Part shown: positions 49,874-64,000 of the stretch, one piece after another
Layout: every line of letters starts with the position of its first letter
Numbering within the stretch: the stretch's first letter is position 1
Assembly (NCBI GenBank): GCA_964360065.1
Contig: CAYHTW010000003.1
Coordinates: forward strand, 44,853-108,852
DNA length: 64,000 bases
From: an uncultured Candidatus Saccharibacteria bacterium
Lineage (GTDB): Bacteria; Patescibacteriota; Minisyncoccia; UBA6257; Colwellbacteraceae
Direction: 5' to 3'
Program-made: the position numbers and the translations under genes
The notes under the pieces: model-generated
What the model saw: the letters and a program-made list of their open reading frames with translations, nothing else
Database searches by the model: none
What the model was told of the DNA's origin: nothing

Positions 49874-51103
49874 TTAAGGTAGGAGGTTTTTCATAAATTG
49901 AACGATATTAGTCCAAAAACCAGGCAAACGTATTGCGCCAGGCTCAAATTCCCTGCCCCAAAGAAGGAGGCCCAGGACAGTGACATATTCAGGAGACTCC
50001 AGGAACGGAGCAACGTCCTTGGAGTGCATTGGAAAATACTCGGGGTGCGGCAAACCTATCTGTGTGGACAGTTTAAGCTCATCCCTAAAAAGTTCTACTA
50101 TACCCGGCAGCTTAGAACCGCCACCGGAGAGCACCACCCCTCCAGGTAATCGCCCCGCTTTACCTACTAATCTTAACTCGTTATTGATAAGTTCGCAAAT
50201 CTCGGTGAGACGCGACTCTATTATTTCAGCTATATATCTTCTTGATGGCGTACCCTTAAGATTCACATCAATCTTTTTTAAGTCTATAGTTTCTCTGGCG
50301 GGAACTTCTTTAGCCACAGCATAGCCATAAGAAATTTTTAGTTTCTCCGCTGCTTCCACCGGGATTTTTAAAGCTACTGCCAGGTCTTTGGTCACGTGTC
50401 CCGCTCCAATCGGCAACATAGTGGTGTGCAATAATTTATTCTCTTCGTAAATTGCTATACCAGTCGTACTGTAACCAACGTCAATCATAACAACTCCTAA
50501 TTCTTTTTGGTTTTTGGTGAGTGCCGCTTGAGCGGATGCCAGTGGATTAAAGATCAATCCAGAAACGCTTCCGCCGGCTAGCTCCACGCATTTCAAAAGA
50601 TTTTTAATCGCCGGGTCAAAAGCGTCAATGATAATACTCACTACTTCCAACCTGGCTCCCACCATACCCAAGGGATCTTTAATGTCGGCCACGCCATCTA
50701 CAATAAATTCTCTGGTAATCGTGTGGAGAATAGTTCTGTTGGATGGCAAATGCACCGCCTCCGAAGCCTGCATGGCCCTAGAAGTGTCATCGCGATGTAT
50801 TTCGGAGCTCGCCCTAGAGACGGCAATGATACCCCTGGAAATCTGAGAATGAATATCAGAACTGCCAAGATTCAAATAAATGTTGTGAATAGCTCCCTTG
50901 GAAAAACTTTTTACTTCCTGTAAGACGGCGTTAATAGAAGAAGCGGCTTCGTCCATATCAACCACTACTCCACGCCTCAAACCATGAGAGGGTCTTTCTA
51001 CACTATAAACGAGGGAAACTTTGTCGCCCTGTTCTTCTTCGGCTACTACAGCCCTGATTGAACTTGATCCGACGTCCAACCCTAAGATCCTATTTTTAGC
51101 CAT
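49874..51103 (-). CDS. ftsA: Cell division protein FtsA
   Basis: 409 aa actin-like; ILGLDVGSSSIRAVV and the SHS2 insert. Confidence 0.9.
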   Translation of the reverse strand: MAKNRILGLDVGSSSIRAVVAEEEQGDKVSLVYSVERPSHGLRRGVVVDMDEAASSINAVLQEVKSFSKGAIHNIYLNLGSSDIHSQISRGIIAVSRASSEIHRDDTSRAMQASEAVHLPSNRTILHTITREFIVDGVADIKDPLGMVGARLEVVSIIIDAFDPAIKNLLKCVELAGGSVSGLIFNPLASAQAALTKNQKELGVVMIDVGYSTTGIAIYEENKLLHTTMLPIGAGHVTKDLAVALKIPVEAAEKLKISYGYAVAKEVPARETIDLKKIDVNLKGTPSRRYIAEIIESRLTEICELINNELRLVGKAGRLPGGVVLSGGGSKLPGIVELFRDELKLSTQIGLPHPEYFPMHSKDVAPFLESPEYVTVLGLLLWGREFEPGAIRLPGFWTNIVQFMKNLLP

Positions 51104-55250: not shown

Positions 55251-56762
55251 TTACTCTGGGAAATTCATGTCTCTCACCAAGAAAGTAGCCTGGAAAGACA
55301 CCTTGCCATCCGATTTCATAACTATGCCGGAAAAAGGCACGCTGACATTGGCAAATTGGCTCTGAGAGTCAAGTCTCTTTTTAAAATCCAGCACGGAATT
55401 CTGATCTGGAGCAGTGCCAAAAATCAAAATTGGGGAAGAAAGCGATTGAATGGTTAATTTATCAAAAGAAATATTGTCTCCTGCCAATTGGCCTAAATAA
55501 TTAAGGAATGGGGTAATTCTTACATCCGACTCTTGGGCGGATTTTACTAAATCAACTACCTTATTAAAAGCTGTCGCTTGAACCCGTAAAGCCGCAAGCT
55601 CCGGAGTTGCCACCTCGGTATTCCCACCCTGAATAACTGTGGTAGCTAGTTTATCGGCTAATCTAGAGACATAAATGTCGCTTGCGGAAAAAACCAGGAG
55701 AATAAAACTTATCACCGTTATGAAAACTTTCCTCCAAAGATAAGTGAATTCCAAAACTTCCTGTTGCTCAAATATTTTGACAGCTGACTCTCCAGTTAAA
55801 CTGATGTTAGTATCTTCGGCTCTCCTAATAAGTCCCCTTAAGGCAGCGCCGGCCACGGCCGTTACTTCCTCCGAAGGAATGGAACTAACTTTCATATCTG
55901 GGAATTTCTTATTTACAGCTTCGGCGATTTCTGCGCCTAAAGAGGATGTTACTACGATCATATTTTTAAGTTGGTCTCCAGATCGGCCTATATAGAAGTT
56001 CAAAACTTTAGCCACTTCATTGTCTACCGCCGTTTCCATATTTGTGAGCGTAATGCTTCTCTCACCTGCCAGCACCAACTTCCAAGGATAAAAGTAGCTA
56101 AAATAAACGCTATTGTTCTTAGTAACGATGAAATCAAGCCCTTCGACGGTTACGTGCATCACTAAATAAGAGGAAGTCTCGTCAAGCTTCCCCAAGCTAA
56201 CCAGCTGCCGCACTAAGCTTAGTGCCGAAAACTCTACAGCTGCGACGCTAAAATTAGCTTCGTGCAAAGCGATAACTATGTTATCAATGCTCTCTGACGG
56301 CATAAAAGCCCCTAGAAGTTCTATAACTCCGCCAGGACCTCCCGTATCAGCTATTTTCTGCCAGCCGTAATAAGCTCCTTCTATTGGCATTGGAGAAATC
56401 ATACGTAAGTTAAGTTCCGCTGCCTCTGTTAGGTTAGATTCGGCAGCTTTAGAAACATTGAAAGATTGAACGTATACATCATTGCCAGAGAGAGTCAGAA
56501 TAATATTAATAATTTTTTTAGAATCAACAGTGATCTGCGAATGTATTGTTCTTAAAGCCTCTGTAAAGTTAGTTTCTTCCCCACGATGCACCTTGCCGTC
56601 TTCAACTATACCTGGAGGCAACCTTAAGGAAGCTACAGGAGCGCTGCCATAAGATAAATCATAAAAATTAATTACCGAATCGGTTATTTCTAAACCGCCT
56701 ATCTGTGGTGTAGGAAAAATCAAACGGTTAAAATTTCTTAAAGTTTTTTTGAAATCCATCAT
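55251..56762 (-). CDS. pilM: Type IV pilus assembly protein, PilM (actin-like) fused to a PilN/PilO-like TM + periplasmic region
   Basis: 503 aa; the N-terminal ~330 aa are actin-fold-like, followed by a single TM (FITVISFILLVFSASDIYV) and a periplasmic coiled region. Sits in the pilus gene context. Confidence 0.55.
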   Translation of the reverse strand: MMDFKKTLRNFNRLIFPTPQIGGLEITDSVINFYDLSYGSAPVASLRLPPGIVEDGKVHRGEETNFTEALRTIHSQITVDSKKIINIILTLSGNDVYVQSFNVSKAAESNLTEAAELNLRMISPMPIEGAYYGWQKIADTGGPGGVIELLGAFMPSESIDNIVIALHEANFSVAAVEFSALSLVRQLVSLGKLDETSSYLVMHVTVEGLDFIVTKNNSVYFSYFYPWKLVLAGERSITLTNMETAVDNEVAKVLNFYIGRSGDQLKNMIVVTSSLGAEIAEAVNKKFPDMKVSSIPSEEVTAVAGAALRGLIRRAEDTNISLTGESAVKIFEQQEVLEFTYLWRKVFITVISFILLVFSASDIYVSRLADKLATTVIQGGNTEVATPELAALRVQATAFNKVVDLVKSAQESDVRITPFLNYLGQLAGDNISFDKLTIQSLSSPILIFGTAPDQNSVLDFKKRLDSQSQFANVSVPFSGIVMKSDGKVSFQATFLVRDMNFPE

Positions 56763-56770
56763 AGTAAATT

Positions 56771-57211
56771 TTAAAATGGCTTCTCCTGCATTGAGATTAC
56801 TATAATCTGCCCGCTAAAAGCATCTACTCCCATCACGGCCTCAAACCGCTTTTTTCTTGTACCTGCGTTTCCGATTGAAACAACTTTTAAGGTGCCGTCG
56901 GCATTATCTATAACGCCAACCGTTGCGGAAGCCGTATCAACAGTTAAGGGATAAGTGGTAACTCCATCACAGGTTATACTGAATGCTGTGGCTAAAGCGC
57001 TGCAGTTTTTATAACGTACAATTTTAACAGCAGCGTCTTCCGCTCCGGTTCTGGCCGCCACTAATGCCTGAGCTGCCAGCTTTGAACTTGCCACCGTATT
57101 GCTAACTAAAACTCCGACAATGAGTCCGGAGATAGCCAATTCCATCACGATACCTGATATAAGCAATATTGCCGCTAAGGTTGCCGCTCCTTTTTTTATT
57201 TGTATTGTCAT
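56771..57211 (-). CDS. Hypothetical N-terminally anchored protein in pilus cluster (possible minor pilin/TadE-like)
   Basis: 146 aa; the hydrophobic N-terminus KKGAATLAAILLISGIVMELAISG lacks a canonical G/FTLIE prepilin motif. Confidence 0.35.
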   Translation of the reverse strand: MTIQIKKGAATLAAILLISGIVMELAISGLIVGVLVSNTVASSKLAAQALVAARTGAEDAAVKIVRYKNCSALATAFSITCDGVTTYPLTVDTASATVGVIDNADGTLKVVSIGNAGTRKKRFEAVMGVDAFSGQIIVISMQEKPF

Positions 57212-57214
57212 TTC

Positions 57215-60200
57215 TTACGGAGACCAATTAACTATAACATCATCAACTCTAGGTGAAGTAGCAGTATCAACTTTCTGTAGAATTACCTTATATCGGTAAT
57301 ATCTCGTGCCCTTACTGTAGGCACCATTTAACGGGACTGGAGAGTTTGGGCCACTAGTAGTGTAGTAAGTACCGGTTGATCCTCCAGGACCAAGATAAGT
57401 CCAGGCGCCTGTGTTGCAAGTGGGAGCATTAGTCTGACCACCTGGGCAATTGGAGGCGGCAAACTGGAAAGTGACGTAATTGGTACCTCCTGTCCCTAGG
57501 GCTCCTTGCCACATAAGTGAATTGTGATTCACGCCTTTAGTGAAGCCTGTGTCATATGTGCTGGAAATTAACGAACCGGTGGTAAGGACTCCGATTATAA
57601 ACCCGCCGCTAAAAGTTCCGGTCTGGGTATCAGGATTGGTCACCCTAACATCCCAAGCTCCATTAGCCGCTCCTGTGATGGGACAAGTTCCATTAGAAAG
57701 AGTTGTGGAATTAGTAAAGATAAAACCTGTGCAATTGATGGTTGTCTGGCCCGATTTCAAAAGTGATACCGTTGCTCCAGAAATAAAGTTAGTGCCCGAA
57801 ACGGAAATGATAGAAACGGGTGCGTTGTTGATGCCGCTCGTTGGGTTAATCGCAGTAGTGGTAGGAGCCGCTAGAGAAGTAGTAAAACTCCCATCGGCGG
57901 AATAAGACGTACCTATGCTGTTGGTGGCGTAGCCTCGGTAATAGATAAGGGTGCCTGGCGGCATTCCAGATCTGGCCTGAGTGAAAACTCCCGTGGTGGT
58001 GCCTCCTTCAGCAGTACAGTTAGTTGTTGGGGTGGCTGTGGTTGCCCAGCATGTGCCTTTGGCTGTAAGAGTGATGCCTCCATTAGAAGTGACATTAGCA
58101 CCGAGCGTGACGCCTGTAGGGGTAATGGAAGTGGCGGTGGGAGAAGTGACGGTTGGAAGTCCCGTCACACTAAATGTTCCGTTACTTGTGAAAGTATGAA
58201 TAGTATTTGCGCCACTAGTTGTTATCGTGCCGCCAGTAACAGTATAAGCAGAGAAATCTGCGGTTACGTAAGAAATAATAACTATACCAATTACTCCAAC
58301 TTTCCCATTCCCACTTGGGCTAGAACCCATGCCTCCACTTCCTTTTTCAGTACGGTCACCTTGACCACTAGAATAACTACCACCAACGCCGTAAGTTACA
58401 GCAGACCCAGAAATTGAATTTACAATTCCAGGTCCTGGAGTATAACCACTACCATCTCCTCCAGCGCCACCGCCGCCACCTTCCCAGGCGCTATTTGCTG
58501 CCCCGTCTCCTCCTTTACCACCCTGAAAACCAATTCCACCTGCTCCTCCACCTTCCATAGATCCTCCCCCACCAGAACCACCACTACTACCTGCATTACT
58601 TAGGGAACCGTATGCTCCTCCTCCGCCGCCATAGGCAATCGTGGCTGAAAAAACTGAGTTGCCACCATTCCCGCCTTGTCCAGCTCCACCATTAATTCCA
58701 GCGACGCCCGCCGCTCCAACTGTAACAGAATACGCTTGGGTGGTAACTGGAAGGGCAGCATTATATTGATAACCACCCGCACCCCCTCCTCCTCCCCTAT
58801 TGGTGTAACTTGCTCCTCCTCCGCCCCCTCCTCCTACTGAAAATACTTTTACCGCTCCAATAGGAGCTCCCGGCACAATAGAGAAAATCCCGCTTGTCGT
58901 GAAAGTATGAATAGTATTTGCGCCACTAGTTGTTATCGTGCCGCCAGTAACAGTATAAGCAGAGAAATCTGCGGTTACGTAAGAAATAATAGTAACCCCA
59001 GAACCACCAGCCCCTCCTTTATAGTAGCCACCACCACTACCTCGAGTGCCTCCACCTCCTCCACCAAGACCATTTGTTCCAGCATAACCATCGCCTCCAA
59101 GTCTTCCTGCTGCTCCTCCACCATTACCACCCGATCCCTGTCCTGCTCCACCTGCCCCCCCTCCACCACCAGCGTAATATATACTTGATCCACTAATATC
59201 ATTAGAAAAACCAGCGCCACCATTTCCACCGACTCCATTTGGACTAGCGGCATCGGTTCCATTTAAACCAATTGCTCCGGCTCCCCCTCCTCCAGCGCCC
59301 CCTCCCTCTGTGCTTTCTCCTCCGTGGCCTCCGTTATATCCTTGACTTGCAGTTCCTCCGATACCTCCATTATTACTTTCAGCACCACCCCCACCACCAC
59401 CAGACCCTCCGTTTCTTCCATTTGTTCCACTACCACCAACACCTCCACCTCCACCTCCATTTCCGGTTATAGTTGAAAAACTAGATGCAGCACCATCGTT
59501 TCCTTGATTACCTACACTAGAAGCAGTCCCACCAACACCAACAATAACTGTATAATCTTGTGCAATAACAGAAAAAGAAGCATTGTATTGATAACCACCC
59601 GCACCACCCCCACCACCATTACGAGACCAAGAGGTTTGAGATCCCCCACTACCTCCACCTCCTATTACCAATGCTTTTACTTTCATCTTAAGAGTCACTG
59701 TAAAAATCCCGCTTGTCGTGAAAGTATGAATAGTATTTGCGCCGCTGGTCGTTACCGTGCCGCCAGTGATAGTGTATGCAGACCAGTCTGCCGTAACATA
59801 GCTGATGATGACGACTCCTGTGCCGCCAGTGCCTCCTGTATTACTTTTTGAACCGCCGCCGCCACCGCCGGTATTTGGTGTTCCGTTTTGCGGAGTAGCG
59901 GCTACAGATCCATTCCCACCGCCACCAACTCCACCAGTGCCTCCAGAATCATTATTACCACCACCTCCTCCACCACCTGCGTAAGTAACGGAAACGCCTG
60001 AAATTGAATTTGCTGTTCCTGCGCCGCCATTCGCTCCCTCATCATCTCCTGCATTTGCTCCTGCAGCAGAAGCTCCTCCTCCCCCTCCGCCCGCGCCTCC
60101 CGATGTCCCACCGTTATTTCCCTGACCAGATGTTCCTGTACCGTTCGCATAGTTATTACCGCCCCCACCACCGCTACCACCATTAACTCCCACACCCGAA

Positions 60201-60568
60201 GAAAGAGTACGTCCTCCTCCACCTCCTACTGCTGTATGTGTCGCAAAAACGCTATTCCCCCCCGGTGAGCCATTTTGTGTTCCATTAGACGGCCCACCAG
60301 CGCCGCCTCCTCCAACGGTTACCGAGTATGCCTGCGGTGTTACGGCAATGGCGGCATTATAAATATATCCACCCGCTCCTCCACCTCCCCCAGCAGTATT
60401 ACCGCTACCTACACTGGCGCCACCGCCTCCGCCTGCTACTACAAGCACATTTACTGTCGCTACAGAATGCGCAGGAGGAGTTCCGTACATAAAGCTTCCT
60501 ATGGTTAATAAACTAACTAAGATGGTTACCCCCCCTCCCGCGAATATGTGTTTTTTGGTGATTTTCAT
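57215..60568 (-). CDS. Giant glycine-rich modular surface protein (1117 aa): signal anchor, three Gly-rich modules each ending in a conserved ~40-aa block, C-terminal Thr/Ser-rich FN3-like and IPT/TIG-like domains
   Basis: Single uninterrupted ORF. The N-terminus is MKITKKHIFAGGGVTILVSLLTIGSF. The block ISYVTAD(W/F)SAYT(I/V)TGGT(V/I)TTSGANTIHTFT recurs three times. Gly runs take the form GGGGGAGGY(I/Q)YNA...AYSVTVG. The C-terminus contains YYRGYATNSIGTSY (FN3-like) and SIISVSGTNFISGATV...WDVRVTNPDTQTGTF (IPT/TIG-like). Confidence 0.7.
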   Translation of the reverse strand: MKITKKHIFAGGGVTILVSLLTIGSFMYGTPPAHSVATVNVLVVAGGGGGASVGSGNTAGGGGGAGGYIYNAAIAVTPQAYSVTVGGGGAGGPSNGTQNGSPGGNSVFATHTAVGGGGGRTLSSGVGVNGGSGGGGGNNYANGTGTSGQGNNGGTSGGAGGGGGGASAAGANAGDDEGANGGAGTANSISGVSVTYAGGGGGGGNNDSGGTGGVGGGGNGSVAATPQNGTPNTGGGGGGSKSNTGGTGGTGVVIISYVTADWSAYTITGGTVTTSGANTIHTFTTSGIFTVTLKMKVKALVIGGGGSGGSQTSWSRNGGGGGAGGYQYNASFSVIAQDYTVIVGVGGTASSVGNQGNDGAASSFSTITGNGGGGGGVGGSGTNGRNGGSGGGGGGAESNNGGIGGTASQGYNGGHGGESTEGGGAGGGGAGAIGLNGTDAASPNGVGGNGGAGFSNDISGSSIYYAGGGGGAGGAGQGSGGNGGGAAGRLGGDGYAGTNGLGGGGGGTRGSGGGYYKGGAGGSGVTIISYVTADFSAYTVTGGTITTSGANTIHTFTTSGIFSIVPGAPIGAVKVFSVGGGGGGGASYTNRGGGGGAGGYQYNAALPVTTQAYSVTVGAAGVAGINGGAGQGGNGGNSVFSATIAYGGGGGAYGSLSNAGSSGGSGGGGSMEGGGAGGIGFQGGKGGDGAANSAWEGGGGGAGGDGSGYTPGPGIVNSISGSAVTYGVGGSYSSGQGDRTEKGSGGMGSSPSGNGKVGVIGIVIISYVTADFSAYTVTGGTITTSGANTIHTFTSNGTFSVTGLPTVTSPTATSITPTGVTLGANVTSNGGITLTAKGTCWATTATPTTNCTAEGGTTTGVFTQARSGMPPGTLIYYRGYATNSIGTSYSADGSFTTSLAAPTTTAINPTSGINNAPVSIISVSGTNFISGATVSLLKSGQTTINCTGFIFTNSTTLSNGTCPITGAANGAWDVRVTNPDTQTGTFSGGFIIGVLTTGSLISSTYDTGFTKGVNHNSLMWQGALGTGGTNYVTFQFAASNCPGGQTNAPTCNTGAWTYLGPGGSTGTYYTTSGPNSPVPLNGAYSKGTRYYRYKVILQKVDTATSPRVDDVIVNWSP
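58188..59812. repeat. Three tandem intragenic DNA repeats (period ~710-820 bp) with >95-nt identical cores starting at 58188, 58899 and 59718
   Basis: GTGAAAGTATGAATAGTATTTGCGCCACTAGTTGTTATCGTGCCGCCAGTAACAGTATAAGCAGAGAAATCTGCGGTTACGTAAGAAATAATA is identical in copies 1 and 2. Copy 3 is diverged. The plus-strand ORFs 58196, 58907 and 59504 beginning MNSICA... are artefacts of this repeat. Confidence 0.9.
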
Positions 60569-60578
60569 ATGATAATAT

Positions 60579-61268
60579 TTATGGAACGGTTATTGAGCCC
60601 GGAGTTGTAGTGGTGTCTAAACCACTCTGCGATGAATAGCCATTACTTGGTTGTGTTATGGGGCCTTCTGTGCCAGAGCTTCCGCTCCAATCGGTGAAAT
60701 TGCTAGTCTGGTTAACGTAGTGAGTTACATAGCCCGTATTTTTAAAGTCCCCCGTGCCGCCCACGGTTTGTGGCCAAGTAACTCTCACTGTTATTTTTTG
60801 AGTTGAAGGGTCTTCTAAGATATCACTAAATAAACCCGTGCAGGCAGTTTGCGCAGAACTAGTAACGCTACCAGTACCACAACTGTCACGATTGACGTTT
60901 TCCACGGTAAAGTAGCGCGTATAAACTATATTATTGACTGTCAGTTGCTCACTATTGTTAGTTAGAGTGAACGGGCTACCACCGGTGGCAAGATAATAAC
61001 AGTAAGGGGTGCAGGCCTGCGTTGTGTCTCCCTTGGAAATAACCGCATAAAGATCTTGCCAGTTAGCTTCTCCATAAGAACGGACATTGTCCATTAACTC
61101 TTGAGCGAGTGAAGAGGCTGTGTCAGTAATACGGCTTGCTTGATTACTCTTGATAGTTGTGACAAAAGCCGCGGCGGCGGAGGCGACAATAATCGCGCCA
61201 ACGGCAACGGCAATTAGTATTTCTATCAAAGATTGTCCTTCTCTTTCTTTAATAATCGATTCTACCAT
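60579..61268 (-). CDS. Type IV pilin-like protein (prepilin-type N-terminal methylation domain), 229 aa
   Basis: KEREG|QSLIEILIAVAVGAIIVASAAAAF is a class III signal plus hydrophobic alpha1 with Glu at +5. The C-terminal Ser/Thr-rich domain has Cys pairs. Confidence 0.7.
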   Translation of the reverse strand: MVESIIKEREGQSLIEILIAVAVGAIIVASAAAAFVTTIKSNQASRITDTASSLAQELMDNVRSYGEANWQDLYAVISKGDTTQACTPYCYYLATGGSPFTLTNNSEQLTVNNIVYTRYFTVENVNRDSCGTGSVTSSAQTACTGLFSDILEDPSTQKITVRVTWPQTVGGTGDFKNTGYVTHYVNQTSNFTDWSGSSGTEGPITQPSNGYSSQSGLDTTTTPGSITVP

Positions 61269-61743
61269 TGATGTTAACTGTTATAGTGTTTGAGTCAGAT
61301 ACGCTCACTAAACCAAGTGTAACATTCACGGTAGCCGTGGGCAATCCGGTGGCTTTATTGAAAACAATATTCTTAGAAGTTCCTGAAGCCGGATCGGTAA
61401 ATTGTACCTTATTATTCAATACATACCTCTGTGATTCAGCCGCACCAACACCTTCGGCAGCGCAAGAAGTGCTAGGGGCAGTGTAAGATGTCCCGTAACA
61501 GAGATACATAACGTCATTTGCGCCCCCGGCAGGATTATCAAAGCGCATCCACCATTGGTATCCCCCGTCTTGAGAGATAGCTTTGGCTGCGGCGTTATTA
61601 AGTTGCTTCACGGTTATTTGCACCTGATTATCAAGAGTCGATTTAGTTCCAGAACCTATCATAAGTTGGGTCGAGATGACAGAAATGATTACAATCACCC
61701 CCAGTATTATCATCAGCTCTATCAAAGTGAAACCTTTTCTCAT
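61249..61743 (-). CDS. pilA: Type IV pilin (major pilin candidate), 164 aa
   Basis: MRKG|FTLIELMIILGVIVIISVIS is a canonical prepilin leader with the G/F cleavage site and E5. Confidence 0.8.
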   Translation of the reverse strand: MRKGFTLIELMIILGVIVIISVISTQLMIGSGTKSTLDNQVQITVKQLNNAAAKAISQDGGYQWWMRFDNPAGGANDVMYLCYGTSYTAPSTSCAAEGVGAAESQRYVLNNKVQFTDPASGTSKNIVFNKATGLPTATVNVTLGLVSVSDSNTITVNINGRIDY

Positions 61744-61746
61744 TTC

Positions 61747-62961
61747 TTATCCTATTGTACCAACTAGCTGGTAAATTGGGACGATGATGGCCAAAGCAAT
61801 AGTAGCCACCACAAAACCGATAACTAGCAAAAGGACTGGCTCCAAGAAAGAAATTAAAGTCTTGGTGGAGGCGTCAATTTCTGATTCATAAAACTCGGCT
61901 AAAGTATCCAAAATATTTTCCATGTGGCCCGCTTTCTCGGAAATAGCTATCAGGTTAACCACCACTCTTGGGAAAATCTGCTCCCTCCTGAAAGCTTCTC
62001 CAATGGTAAGTCCTTTTGGAACTGCGTCTCGCGATATTCGCAGTAACGCTTCTCTCATCTCCATGTGCCCCACCGAATCGGCTGTAATTTCCAAAGAATC
62101 TAAGATGGACATACCGCTTTTTAGCAGCGACGAGAAAGTCGCCGCAAATCTTTGGATAGCAATTCTATAAAGAATATCTCCCACTATAGGCGCTCTCGCT
62201 AAAAACCTTCCCATCATGGCGCGCCCCGCCACTGTTCTCTTGAAGAAATACCACCCACCCACCAAACCAATAAACAAAGCTGGGAAAATAATGTATGACC
62301 AGGCATTGACGAAAAGTCCCACTCCGAAAACTATCCTGGAGAAAGTCGGCGGTTGGACGCCGCCTGACATAAAAACGTTAGCGATTTTAGGCAAGGCAAA
62401 AGTCACCATGCCGAAAAGGATAACCAGGGCGAGAACGACCAGTACCATCGGATAAATAAGGGCGGCTTTAATTTTACCTCTGATAACCTGCTCTTTTTCT
62501 AGGCTACGGCTCAAATCATCAAAAACTTTTTCCAAATTACCGGAAGTTTCTCCGGCTTTAATAAGGTTAACAAAGACCGGAGAGAAATATTTTGGATATT
62601 TAGTAAAAGTGGAATAAAACGGCTGCCCCTTAGCTAGGGTATCACGAACTTCTATAAGAAGGGACTTAATTGCTGGCTTATCAAAATCCGTTATTAAGAT
62701 ATCAATGGCCTTGAAGAGATCAGTGCCTACTTTAAGCATTAGTGCTAGATACTTAGTTAAGAAAACCTTGTCTTCCACCGTTATCTGCTGAGCAAAGATA
62801 CCACGCAAACCAGTAGTACTAGCTCCGGCCACAGCTTTAACCGAAACCGGCCTTAGGCCTTGTGCGGCCATCCATTCCAAAACCTCGGCTGGACCCTTGG
62901 CTTCTATATCTCCCTCAACCACTCTGCCACCAGGCTCGGAGGCTATGTAATAAAATCTCAT
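61747..62961 (-). CDS. pilC: Type IV pilus platform protein PilC (GspF family)
   Basis: 404 aa; two GspF repeats, 3 TM, typical PilC. Confidence 0.9.
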   Translation of the reverse strand: MRFYYIASEPGGRVVEGDIEAKGPAEVLEWMAAQGLRPVSVKAVAGASTTGLRGIFAQQITVEDKVFLTKYLALMLKVGTDLFKAIDILITDFDKPAIKSLLIEVRDTLAKGQPFYSTFTKYPKYFSPVFVNLIKAGETSGNLEKVFDDLSRSLEKEQVIRGKIKAALIYPMVLVVLALVILFGMVTFALPKIANVFMSGGVQPPTFSRIVFGVGLFVNAWSYIIFPALFIGLVGGWYFFKRTVAGRAMMGRFLARAPIVGDILYRIAIQRFAATFSSLLKSGMSILDSLEITADSVGHMEMREALLRISRDAVPKGLTIGEAFRREQIFPRVVVNLIAISEKAGHMENILDTLAEFYESEIDASTKTLISFLEPVLLLVIGFVVATIALAIIVPIYQLVGTIG

Positions 62962-62962
62962 G

Positions 62963-64000
62963 TTATTCTCTTATAACTCTTAATAATTCGTCTATGGTCG
63001 TCACGCCCGTTTCTATTTTTCGGAGACCATCCTCAAACATAGTTATCATGCCCTCCTCCTTAGCAAGCTGTCTTAGTTTATCCAAAGAAAAATCCGGGCT
63101 GATAATTAATTTCCTCACCTCCTCGGTAACGTTCAGTACCTCAAAAATACCAATTCTGCCTCGGTAACCGCTACCTCCGCAAACAGAACAACCTTTGCCG
63201 GCGTAAATAAACTTAGGCATCTTAAAGTTATCTGTGATGCCAAGATCTTTAACTTGTTTAGATAAGGCTGCAATAAGTTCTTCGGATGGAGCATAAGAGT
63301 ACATACAACTCTTACAAATTTGTCTCACTAATCTCTGGGCTATGATTATGTTAAGCACGGCTGCAACCAGAAAAGGTTGTACATTGATATCTATAAACCG
63401 CGGCACGGCAGTTGTTGCGTCGTTAGTGTGCAGAGAAGACAGCACCAAGTGTCCGGTTAGAGCCGATTGCACTGCGATTTCAGCTGTTTCAGAATCACGG
63501 ATTTCACCAACCATTATGACGTTAGGGTCTTGGCGCAGGATAGCGCGCAGTCCGTCTGCAAAAGTTATGCCAGCCTTCACGTTGATCTGCGTTTGGTTAA
63601 TAAATTTAATATCGTACTCAACTGGGTCTTCCACGGTAACAATATTAACCTCCGGCCTGTTCAAACGTCCTAAAACAGAATAAAGAGTGGTTGATTTACC
63701 GCTCCCCGTCGGACCTGTTACAAGCATCATGCCGTAACTCTTTTTGATATTCTCTTCCAAAATCTTCACCGTGTCGGGCAGCATACCAAGTTCAGTAAAT
63801 GAAAGTGGCCTCGTGCTGGCAGGCAATAATCTCATTTCTACTTTCTCTCCGTAAAAGGTCGGCATAACAGCGACACGGATGTCTATAACATCTCTGCCAA
63901 TTTGGTATCTGAACCTTCCGTCCTGTGGACGAGAATGTTCGTCTATTTTTAGTCCTCCTAGAAGCTTAATCCTGGCCGCAACTGCAGGGTGTATTTCTTT
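62963..64000 (-). CDS. pilB: Type IV pilus assembly ATPase PilB/GspE, C-terminal ~345 aa (N-terminus beyond window end)
   Basis: The ORF track starts at an internal Met (63865), but the frame stays open to 64000. Walker A LVTGPTGSGKSTT, Asp/His boxes, and the tetracysteine motif CKSC...CSVCGGSGYRGR are present. Confidence 0.9.
   Translation of the reverse strand, partial: KEIHPAVAARIKLLGGLKIDEHSRPQDGRFRYQIGRDVIDIRVAVMPTFYGEKVEMRLLPASTRPLSFTELGMLPDTVKILEENIKKSYGMMLVTGPTGSGKSTTLYSVLGRLNRPEVNIVTVEDPVEYDIKFINQTQINVKAGITFADGLRAILRQDPNVIMVGEIRDSETAEIAVQSALTGHLVLSSLHTNDATTAVPRFIDINVQPFLVAAVLNIIIAQRLVRQICKSCMYSYAPSEELIAALSKQVKDLGITDNFKMPKFIYAGKGCSVCGGSGYRGRIGIFEVLNVTEEVRKLIISPDFSLDKLRQLAKEEGMITMFEDGLRKIETGVTTIDELLRVIRE

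Follow-up and report, generated by a model that had tools for sequence, protein, structure and literature searches.

Glycine-rich receptor-binding domains are found in the tail fibres of phages, namely in gp24 of the cyanophage Pam3 (PDB 7YPX), in gp33 and gp29 of the mycobacteriophage Bxb1 (9D93) and, more distantly, in gp38 of the Salmonella phage S16. The paper on the Pam3 structure describes a TNF-like sandwich, the loops of which form a four-layer lattice of glycine-rich motifs, proposes that the variable distal tips of this lattice bind the host receptor, and points out the likeness to S16 gp38 and to ALK. In 2026 the domains of Pam3, Bxb1 gp33/gp29, S16 gp38 and ALK were grouped as polyproline/polyglycine-II bundles. 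Here we describe a gene for a protein of 1117 amino acids (aa), from here on called the giant, which carries three domains of the Pfam family Gly_rich_2 (PF21722) in tandem and lies within a type IV pilus operon of an ultra-small bacterium from groundwater that belongs to the Patescibacteria (Candidate Phyla Radiation, CPR). All coordinates are positions in the stretch of 64,000 nucleotides (nt) that was analysed, hereafter the window; the cluster occupies positions 55251-64000, with all genes on the minus strand (Table 1). We consider it on balance probable that the giant is an exported adhesin which is not itself a pilin, is presented by the type IV pilus and is a functional analogue of PilC/PilY1.

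PilC/PilY1, the tip adhesins of type IVa pili in diderm bacteria, are like the giant large non-pilin proteins with a Sec signal that are encoded among minor pilins, and in both a variable N-terminal adhesin module is combined with a conserved C-terminal carrier; the likeness is an analogy of design, not homology. A search of the giant for the PilY1/Neisseria_PilC propeller gave no Pfam or NCBIfam match at E<=0.1, and its C-terminal region is predicted to form beta-sandwiches and not a propeller. The last domain of this region (D3, about 113-135 aa) is unrelated to the PilY1 propeller and, unlike the propeller, is also fused to pilins. In a second group of described systems, the modular pilins (PilB of S. 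sanguinis with a vWA module, PilC of the same organism with a lectin module, PilX1 and PilX2 of TM7x), functional adhesion modules are grafted onto the pilus, as is proposed here; the literature on modular pilins sets out the design of a carrier plus a variable module both for these and for PilC/PilY1. For the Saccharibacteria TM7x, the host-binding adhesins at the pilus tip have been proposed to be minor pilins that have non-canonical leaders and carry bulky modules at the C-terminus.

What is already known thus includes the fold of the domain, its Pfam family and, in CPR as well, the general idea of pilus adhesins that bear modules. Gly_rich_2 as a pilus module was not found in the literature searched (PF21722; glycine-rich domain and minor pilin), and within that literature the phage-fibre type of glycine-rich head in pilus operons and in pilin fusions appears to be undescribed, as do the D3 carrier family and the fused/split polymorphism at the PilV junction described below. 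An initial annotation, made from the DNA alone, had known of no described pilus component with this architecture.

Compared with the phage fibres, the giant has three copies of the domain in one chain, a bacterial signal peptide and a location in a pilus operon; it lacks an N-terminal trimerising helix, and no gene for a fibre chaperone was seen in the operon. The likeness to the 'TG' region of ALK and LTK (a TNF-like plus a glycine-rich domain) is far more distant than that to the phage fibres, and these proteins, unlike the giant, are metazoan receptor kinases whose ectodomains bind a cytokine.

PF21722, a domain common to more than 3,400 proteins, matched the giant in three stretches with 164.2 bits (E=6e-48; gathering score 24.3 bits). 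The initial annotation had described the modules as almost pure glycine, each followed by a conserved block; the glycine content of the stretches preceding the blocks was measured as 33-39%, and the block (ISYVTADxSAYTxTGGTxTTSGANTIHTFT) was indeed found in exactly three places (aa 255, 528 and 765). In most homologues the motif TGGTxT..G..xIHTFTxSG stands before the Gly_rich_2 domains. Between positions 58001 and 60000 of the window the GC content is 0.51, against a background of about 0.43, and the GC skew falls to -0.32, because the glycine codons (GGN) are on the minus strand; these values are not in themselves evidence of foreign origin.

A structure model of aa 258-560, calculated from an alignment of 22 module sequences, reached a pLDDT of 88.9 and a pTM of 0.85. 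Its closest folds in two fold searches, of which Foldseek gave the same ranking, were Pam3 gp24 and Bxb1 gp33, along with the glycine-rich domain of ALK, and the significant superposition on these solved members predicts a TNF-like receptor-binding fold with polyglycine-II strands. The initial annotation had thus been right in kind when it suggested a polyglycine-II receptor-binding fold, although gp38 of S16, which it had named as the example, is not the nearest relative: the structure (6F45) was not retrieved by either fold search. A sequence search of the PDB with the whole giant gave nothing meaningful, and a tblastn search of a module against annotated phages gave no match, probably owing to the low-complexity filter.

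The proposed link to the pilus is drawn from comparison with relatives, namely from pilin fusions and conserved synteny. In the closest related operon (L002; PilB 4e-211 and PilC 2e-231 against those of the window) all three pilin homologues carry modules of the giant. The homologue of the 164-aa prepilin (62% identity) is 679 aa long and runs into D1 (60% identity) and FN3 repeats; that of the PilV-type prepilin (P0008, 71% identity), in which N_methyl scores above the Pfam cut-off, carries D3 (77.5% identity), two FN3 and three Gly_rich_2 domains; and that of the 146-aa anchored protein P146 (77% identity) is extended by FN3 and Gly_rich_2. Since the same modules are fused to pilins in close relatives, it is most likely the giant that makes the pilus sticky. 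The L002 operon also has, between pilC and the first modular pilin, a 124-aa gene (7573-7947 of L002) which matches 23S_rRNA_IVP and weakly bAvd, an accessory protein of diversity-generating retroelements, and has no counterpart in the window. Such a retroelement as the source of variability was considered and set aside, this weak Avd-like gene being the sole sign of one that was seen and no reverse transcriptase being seen in the 15 kb of L002.

Fusions of this type are not restricted to L002. P0008, P0123, P0129 and the proteins of L002 and L013, the latter from a separate genome with two canonical prepilins carrying Gly_rich_2, are true modular pilins with the giant's modules, and a class III prepilin leader is present in P0008, P0123 and P0129; the giant itself has no pilin module. 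In a syntenic relative from the Paceibacterota (L023), P0123, a pilin fused to D1-D2-D3 without glycine-rich modules, occupies the syntenic slot upstream of the genes for P146 and PilM-N. P0129 is a PilV::D3 pilin of 346 aa, whose junction (...GSITVP|ILLTGSLISS...) falls exactly at the stop of the PilV-type prepilin of the window (...GSITVP*), and D3 of the giant begins with ...GVLTTGSLISS. Both in P0008 and in P0129 the PilV part continues directly into D3 where the PilV gene of the window stops. From the position of this junction the window looks like a PilV::D3 gene that was split by a cassette of about 3 kb.

The split form, with PilV and a D3 protein encoded separately, recurs in L025 and L027. 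The latter is a distant relative (Ca. Liptonbacteria; PilM-N 31% identical), in which the operon lies in the same chromosomal synteny and has the order PilB-PilC-PilA-x-[1186-aa Sec-signal Gly_rich_2/FN3]-PilV-[294-aa D3]-P146-like-PilM-N-Pth-SPase-HisRS. D3 proteins within pilin/PilM-N clusters were also found in L020, L024, L025 (distant) and L028 (Parcubacteria). A scan of the genome collection with the giant gave 11 loci without a full-length orthologue among them, and a metagenome scan with PilM-N gave 3 short contigs, each breaking just upstream.

The C-terminal 323 residues of the giant are modelled as three parts (D1, D2 and D3), of which the first two bear out, in the structure model, the FN3-like and IPT/TIG-like signatures noticed initially; the region had also been called rich in cysteine, of which we counted 6. 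D3 had no match in Pfam even at E<=10. A profile of about 113 residues, ending ...RYFRYK..L......SPRVDDVIVNWSP and with aa 983-1117 of the giant as the first alignment row, was compared with 1.84 billion representative proteins and matched, as a lower bound, 2148 clusters at E<=1e-3 and 947 at E<=1e-10; in nearly all listed matches D3 stands at the extreme C-terminus. Among the top 146 D3 proteins, 28 have a PilV-type prepilin leader (GQSLxE) and 77 a signal or anchor, the rest being partial, and the segments between leader and D3 comprise LamG, Kelch propellers, FN3, DUF2341, PA14, FG-GAP and TIG. A constant D3 combined with a variable module is the design of the modular pilins and of PilC/PilY1, and D3 therefore looks like an uncatalogued carrier domain associated with the pilus.

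The last residues of D3 (...SPRVDDVIVNWSP; 57218-57250 in the giant) are nearly invariant in 14 aligned sequences and usually form the exact C-terminus, which suggests that a free C-terminus of D3 may be functional, for example in strand complementation, sorting or processing. Many D3 proteins, such as P0204 (L027, 8001-8885), P0124 and one in L025 (730-1302), have repeats of the type WAWNDxxGWIxF before or inside D3; P0204 had no Pfam match.

The N-terminus of the giant (MKITKKHIFAGGGVTILVSLLTIGSFMYGTPPAHS) contains no G|FxxxE motif, was not matched by N_methyl and is not a class III signal peptide. The giant, having no prepilin leader, is therefore neither a pilin nor a subunit of the pilus. 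In the public gene call it starts at M27, which has AGGA upstream, whereas the longer open reading frame (ORF) starts at M1; we prefer M1 because the first 26 codons are kept in a strain variant (L024) with a different upstream context, and an exact-sequence look-up of the giant returned no record because the public call uses M27. The leader is identical residue for residue in L024, whose upstream neighbour is a tRNA and not PilV, and resembles that of the Gly_rich_2 protein from Liptonbacteria (...YGVPDAHA|).

The variant L024 was found on a contig of 1747 nt (ENA ERZ1292641) from the neighbouring Hainich well H51. Its gene encodes 392 aa from M27, with a single Gly_rich_2 module and D3 behind the signal peptide, and is followed by the P146 gene. 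Judged from the sequences of L024 and the window, members of the aquifer population differ in the number of modules and in the context of the locus. The linker blocks are the sole parts of the repeats that are near-identical at the DNA level; between blocks 2 and 3 a stretch of 93 nt is 100% identical (58188-58280 and 58899-58991). Such identity amid modules that are about 53% identical at the protein level may reflect a hotspot of recombination or concerted evolution, and is also a weak point for assembly. The conserved linker blocks, and module sets that differ among strains from one aquifer, suggest that homologous recombination has shuffled the cassettes.

From these findings we propose that the giant would be exported by Sec and that its three Gly_rich_2 modules would be receptor-binding heads, each a TNF-like beta-sandwich bearing a lattice of polyglycine-II strands, the fold that phage tail fibres use on bacterial surfaces. 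The FN3-like and IPT/TIG-like domains would be spacers, and D3 the carrier that joins the giant to the minor-pilin complex, a role suggested by the occurrence of PilV and D3 both fused and split; its partner would most likely be the upstream PilV-type pilin and/or the downstream 146-aa protein. By analogy with PilY1 and with PilX2 of TM7x, the complex would prime pilus assembly and end at the pilus tip, and the heads would attach to some structure on the surface of the host microbe. The initial annotation had likewise seen in the giant a receptor-binding or tip component; the link to the pilus now has synteny and pilin fusions behind it, and the tip location is what we infer. In evolution, a bimodular PilV::D3 pilin may have been split by the cassette of about 3 kb, inserted exactly at the pilin/D3 junction and bringing a stop codon, a new signal peptide, three Gly_rich_2 modules, D1 and D2, with the near-identical linker blocks as putative recombination sites for module swapping. 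It is possible, if doubtful, that this represents a Patescibacteria-specific system of presentation at the pilus tip, in which D3 replaces the PilY1 propeller, is either fused to a PilV-type pilin or exported by Sec as a separate partner, and carries phage-type heads that recombination at the conserved linker blocks moves as cassettes between pilins, secreted proteins and phages.

Several observations weigh against our proposal. In the fused pilins D3 is last, distal to the payload, so that a docking role fits less simply, and the AlphaFold2 (AF2) model, with low to medium confidence in D3, does not allow a fold to be assigned to it. The giant has neither a prepilin leader nor an N_methyl match, its physical joining to the pilus is something we infer, and the gene in L024 follows a tRNA(-like) sequence instead of PilV. 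The assignments of PilM, PilN, PilV and GspH are all under the curated cut-offs, and the idea that P146 is PilX-like stays at the level of a motif, PilX_N matching 1 of 12 members of the P146 family at E=0.08. Gly_rich_2 is also promiscuous: the co-localisation with pilus genes that the initial annotation had put forward as a check holds for L002 and L027, and fails for the patescibacterial proteins P0019, P0012 and P0062, which are encoded outside pilus loci. Finally, many Gly_rich_2 homologues look phage-borne. Saccharibacteria proteins with Gly_rich_2 and the leader 'GFALPTVLIAS...' were considered as fusions to a P146/PilX-like pilin, which found no support: profile-profile comparison gave a probability of only 8%, and one of them, P0012, lies beside genes for ATP synthase and away from pilus genes.

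The giant could instead be an adhesin of the cell envelope or a surface-layer protein, anchored by its N-terminus or released by signal peptidase and merely co-transcribed with the pilus genes, that acts outside the filament once the cell has been drawn up to its host by the pilus. Its N-terminus is of the Sec type and not a class III leader, similarly anchored Gly_rich_2 proteins occur outside the pilus loci of Patescibacteria, and the work on TM7x itself proposes additional surface adhesins for close range. We nevertheless think this explanation rather unlikely, since in L002, the nearest relative, three different pilins have these modules joined to them covalently, D3 is recurrently fused to PilV-type pilins, with the stop of PilV exactly at the junction of P0129, and the position in the operon is kept across distant lineages. 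That the giant is a tail-fibre gene of phage origin without a role in the pilus, either a prophage remnant or a recent horizontal insertion, is quite improbable: the 64-kb window contains no other phage genes, the giant has a bacterial signal peptide of its own, D1-D3 are shared with pilins of relatives, and the slot is syntenic in several lineages. These points outweigh for us the strong match to the phage family phrog_2295 (4e-105), accompanied by a weaker match to a family annotated 'tail fiber assembly', the phage fibres as best structural matches, the 12 IMG/VR viral contigs that encode relatives, the position of the best sequence relative P0001 (in a metagenome-assembled genome, MAG, labelled Bacteroidetes) in an array with LamG and Phage_phiTE_241_C, and that of P0062, which has a Peptidase_S74 protein and a recombinase as neighbours. 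It may well be that horizontal transfer brought the Gly_rich_2 modules from phages; the gene is nonetheless embedded in, and adapted to, a pilus operon.

Also highly improbable is the explanation that the giant does not exist as a separate gene and is an artefact or pseudogene, a PilV::payload::D3 pilin interrupted by an error in sequencing or assembly or by a mis-joined repeat. It would agree with the fused form in relatives, with the contigs of three other assemblies that end inside the giant gene right beside the perfect 93-nt repeats, and with the fact that the junction between PilV and the giant is covered only by a contig identical to the window. This is a Hainich groundwater contig of 87.8 kb (L015; 0.1-um fraction), to which the region is 100% identical over 8750 nt. 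An independent replicate assembly (L016), however, agrees to 99.98% from aa ~194 to the stop with the frame open, and the three Gly_rich_2 modules are pairwise only 53-57% identical and are therefore paralogues of long standing, neither a duplicated path of the assembly nor collapsed copies, a danger the initial annotation had itself raised. Furthermore, the giant begins 13 nt past the stop of PilV, in another frame, and has a complete signal peptide that is found unchanged in an independent sample behind a tRNA, and in L025 and L027, too, PilV and D3 are encoded as separate proteins. The giant ORF is not an assembly artefact.

Bacteroidetes-type signal peptides are present in proteins from L001, L004 and L007 (MAG W9_Combined_metabat2_052, labelled Bacteroidetes) and in P0128, P0133, P0137 and P0142. 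Compared with the giant, these proteins show 64-76% identity in D1 and up to 63-71% in Gly_rich_2/linker segments, and LamG and Phage_phiTE_241_C domains occur in the arrays to which they belong. Their sequences point to recent module exchange across phyla, to a phage vector or to mis-binning.

Table 1. Features of the type IV pilus gene cluster and of the giant (positions in the window)
Feature	Position	Strand	Remarks
pilB (extension ATPase)	62963 to beyond 64000	-	Pfam T2SSE 4.4e-95; 5' part off the window end
pilC (platform protein)	61747..62961	-	Pfam T2SSF 3.7e-52, two stretches
Prepilin, 164 aa	61249..61743	-	MRKG|FTLIELMI; N_methyl 1.6e-4
PilV-type prepilin, 229 aa	60579..61268	-	REG|QSLIEILIAV; N_methyl 1.1e-4; PilV TIGR02523 1.2e-9, below cut-off
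Giant ORF, 1117 aa	57215..60568	-	Signal, 3 x Gly_rich_2, FN3-like, IPT/TIG-like, D3
Giant, aa 1-35, Sec-type signal or anchor	60464..60568	-	MKITKKH, 21 hydrophobic residues, GTPPAHS|VA; read from sequence
Giant, Gly_rich_2 module 1, aa 36-254	59807..60463	-	PF21722, best stretch aa 35-257
Giant, linker block 1, aa 255-284	59717..59806	-	ISYVTADWSAYTITGGTVTTSGANTIHTFT
Giant, Gly_rich_2 module 2, aa ~294-527	58988..59689	-	
Giant, linker block 2, aa 528-557	58898..58987	-	Within the 93-nt stretch identical to block 3
Giant, Gly_rich_2 module 3, aa ~567-764	58277..58870	-	PF21722; 53-56% identical to modules 1 and 2
Giant, linker block 3, aa 765-794	58187..58276	-	
Giant, D1, aa 795-899, FN3-like beta-sandwich	57872..58186	-	Structure model
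Giant, D2, aa 900-982, IPT/TIG-like	57623..57871	-	Structure model
Giant, D3, aa 983-1117, unannotated conserved C-terminal domain	57218..57622	-	Ends ...VDDVIVNWSP
P146, anchored protein, 146 aa	56771..57211	-	KKG|AATLAAILLISGIVMELA...; leader motif
PilM-PilN fusion, 503 aa	55251..56762	-	TIGR01175 pilM 7e-6; PilN 0.05

The cluster has the content of a type IV pilus operon, with T2SSE, T2SSF, two N_methyl proteins and weak PilM and PilN matches side by side. Its genes lie where the initial annotation had placed them, all co-directional and with gaps of 3-10 nt; one pair, the two prepilin genes, overlaps by 20 nt (61249-61268). The frame of pilB is still open at position 64000, and on the identical contig L015 the full gene encodes 555 aa. 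The 164-aa prepilin had been called a canonical major pilin; its top NCBIfam match is GspH (1.2e-6, below cut-off), and it is probably a minor pilin of the GspH/FimU type, as far as such a match can tell. A better candidate for the major pilin lies on L015 (1472-2020) just past the right end of the window, where a prepilin of 182 aa (MQKKG|FTLVELLIVVAILAVLS...) is encoded together with a response regulator upstream of pilB; a paralogue of this prepilin (P0123, 37% identity) carries D1-D2-D3 in a relative. The public gene call of the PilV-type prepilin starts 13 codons later, so that the leader REG|QSLIE is lost; homologues back the longer form.

P146 is encoded immediately upstream of PilM-N in all loci examined and, from its leader motif, is a possible PilX/GspK-like minor pilin without Glu5. 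In the PilM-N fusion the pilM match covers aa 23-194 at the N-terminus and the PilN match aa 420-493 at the C-terminus, both below cut-off; the homologues in L028 and L025 match PilM_2. Public annotations give faint PilM_2 matches also for the FtsA gene (49874-51103, beside FtsZ), which is not a second PilM. The remainder of the window is housekeeping (UvrB, tRNA synthetases, GroEL, FtsA/FtsZ, ribonucleotide reductase), and neither a prepilin peptidase nor PilT was among the 25 Pfam families listed for its other large ORFs. NCBI labels the identical proteins 'Patescibacteria group bacterium', in agreement with the CPR-like genome that had been surmised initially.

Patescibacteria live attached to other microbes. 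To our knowledge, type IV pili are the one attachment organelle that nearly all of them encode, and we know of little that explains the host specificity of these pili outside two minor pilins of Saccharibacteria. The locus described here suggests that CPR pili, too, bear a receptor-binding fold with which phages recognise bacterial envelopes, in cassettes that can be exchanged and that vary even among strains from one aquifer. It also points to an exchange of genes between the tail fibres of phages and the adhesins of episymbionts. The distal loops of the Gly_rich_2 modules are concrete candidates for host-range determinants, and D3 is a testable carrier domain for joining non-pilin cargo to the pilus. 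If D3 does serve as such a presentation system, the host range of an episymbiont would be set as the host range of a phage is set.

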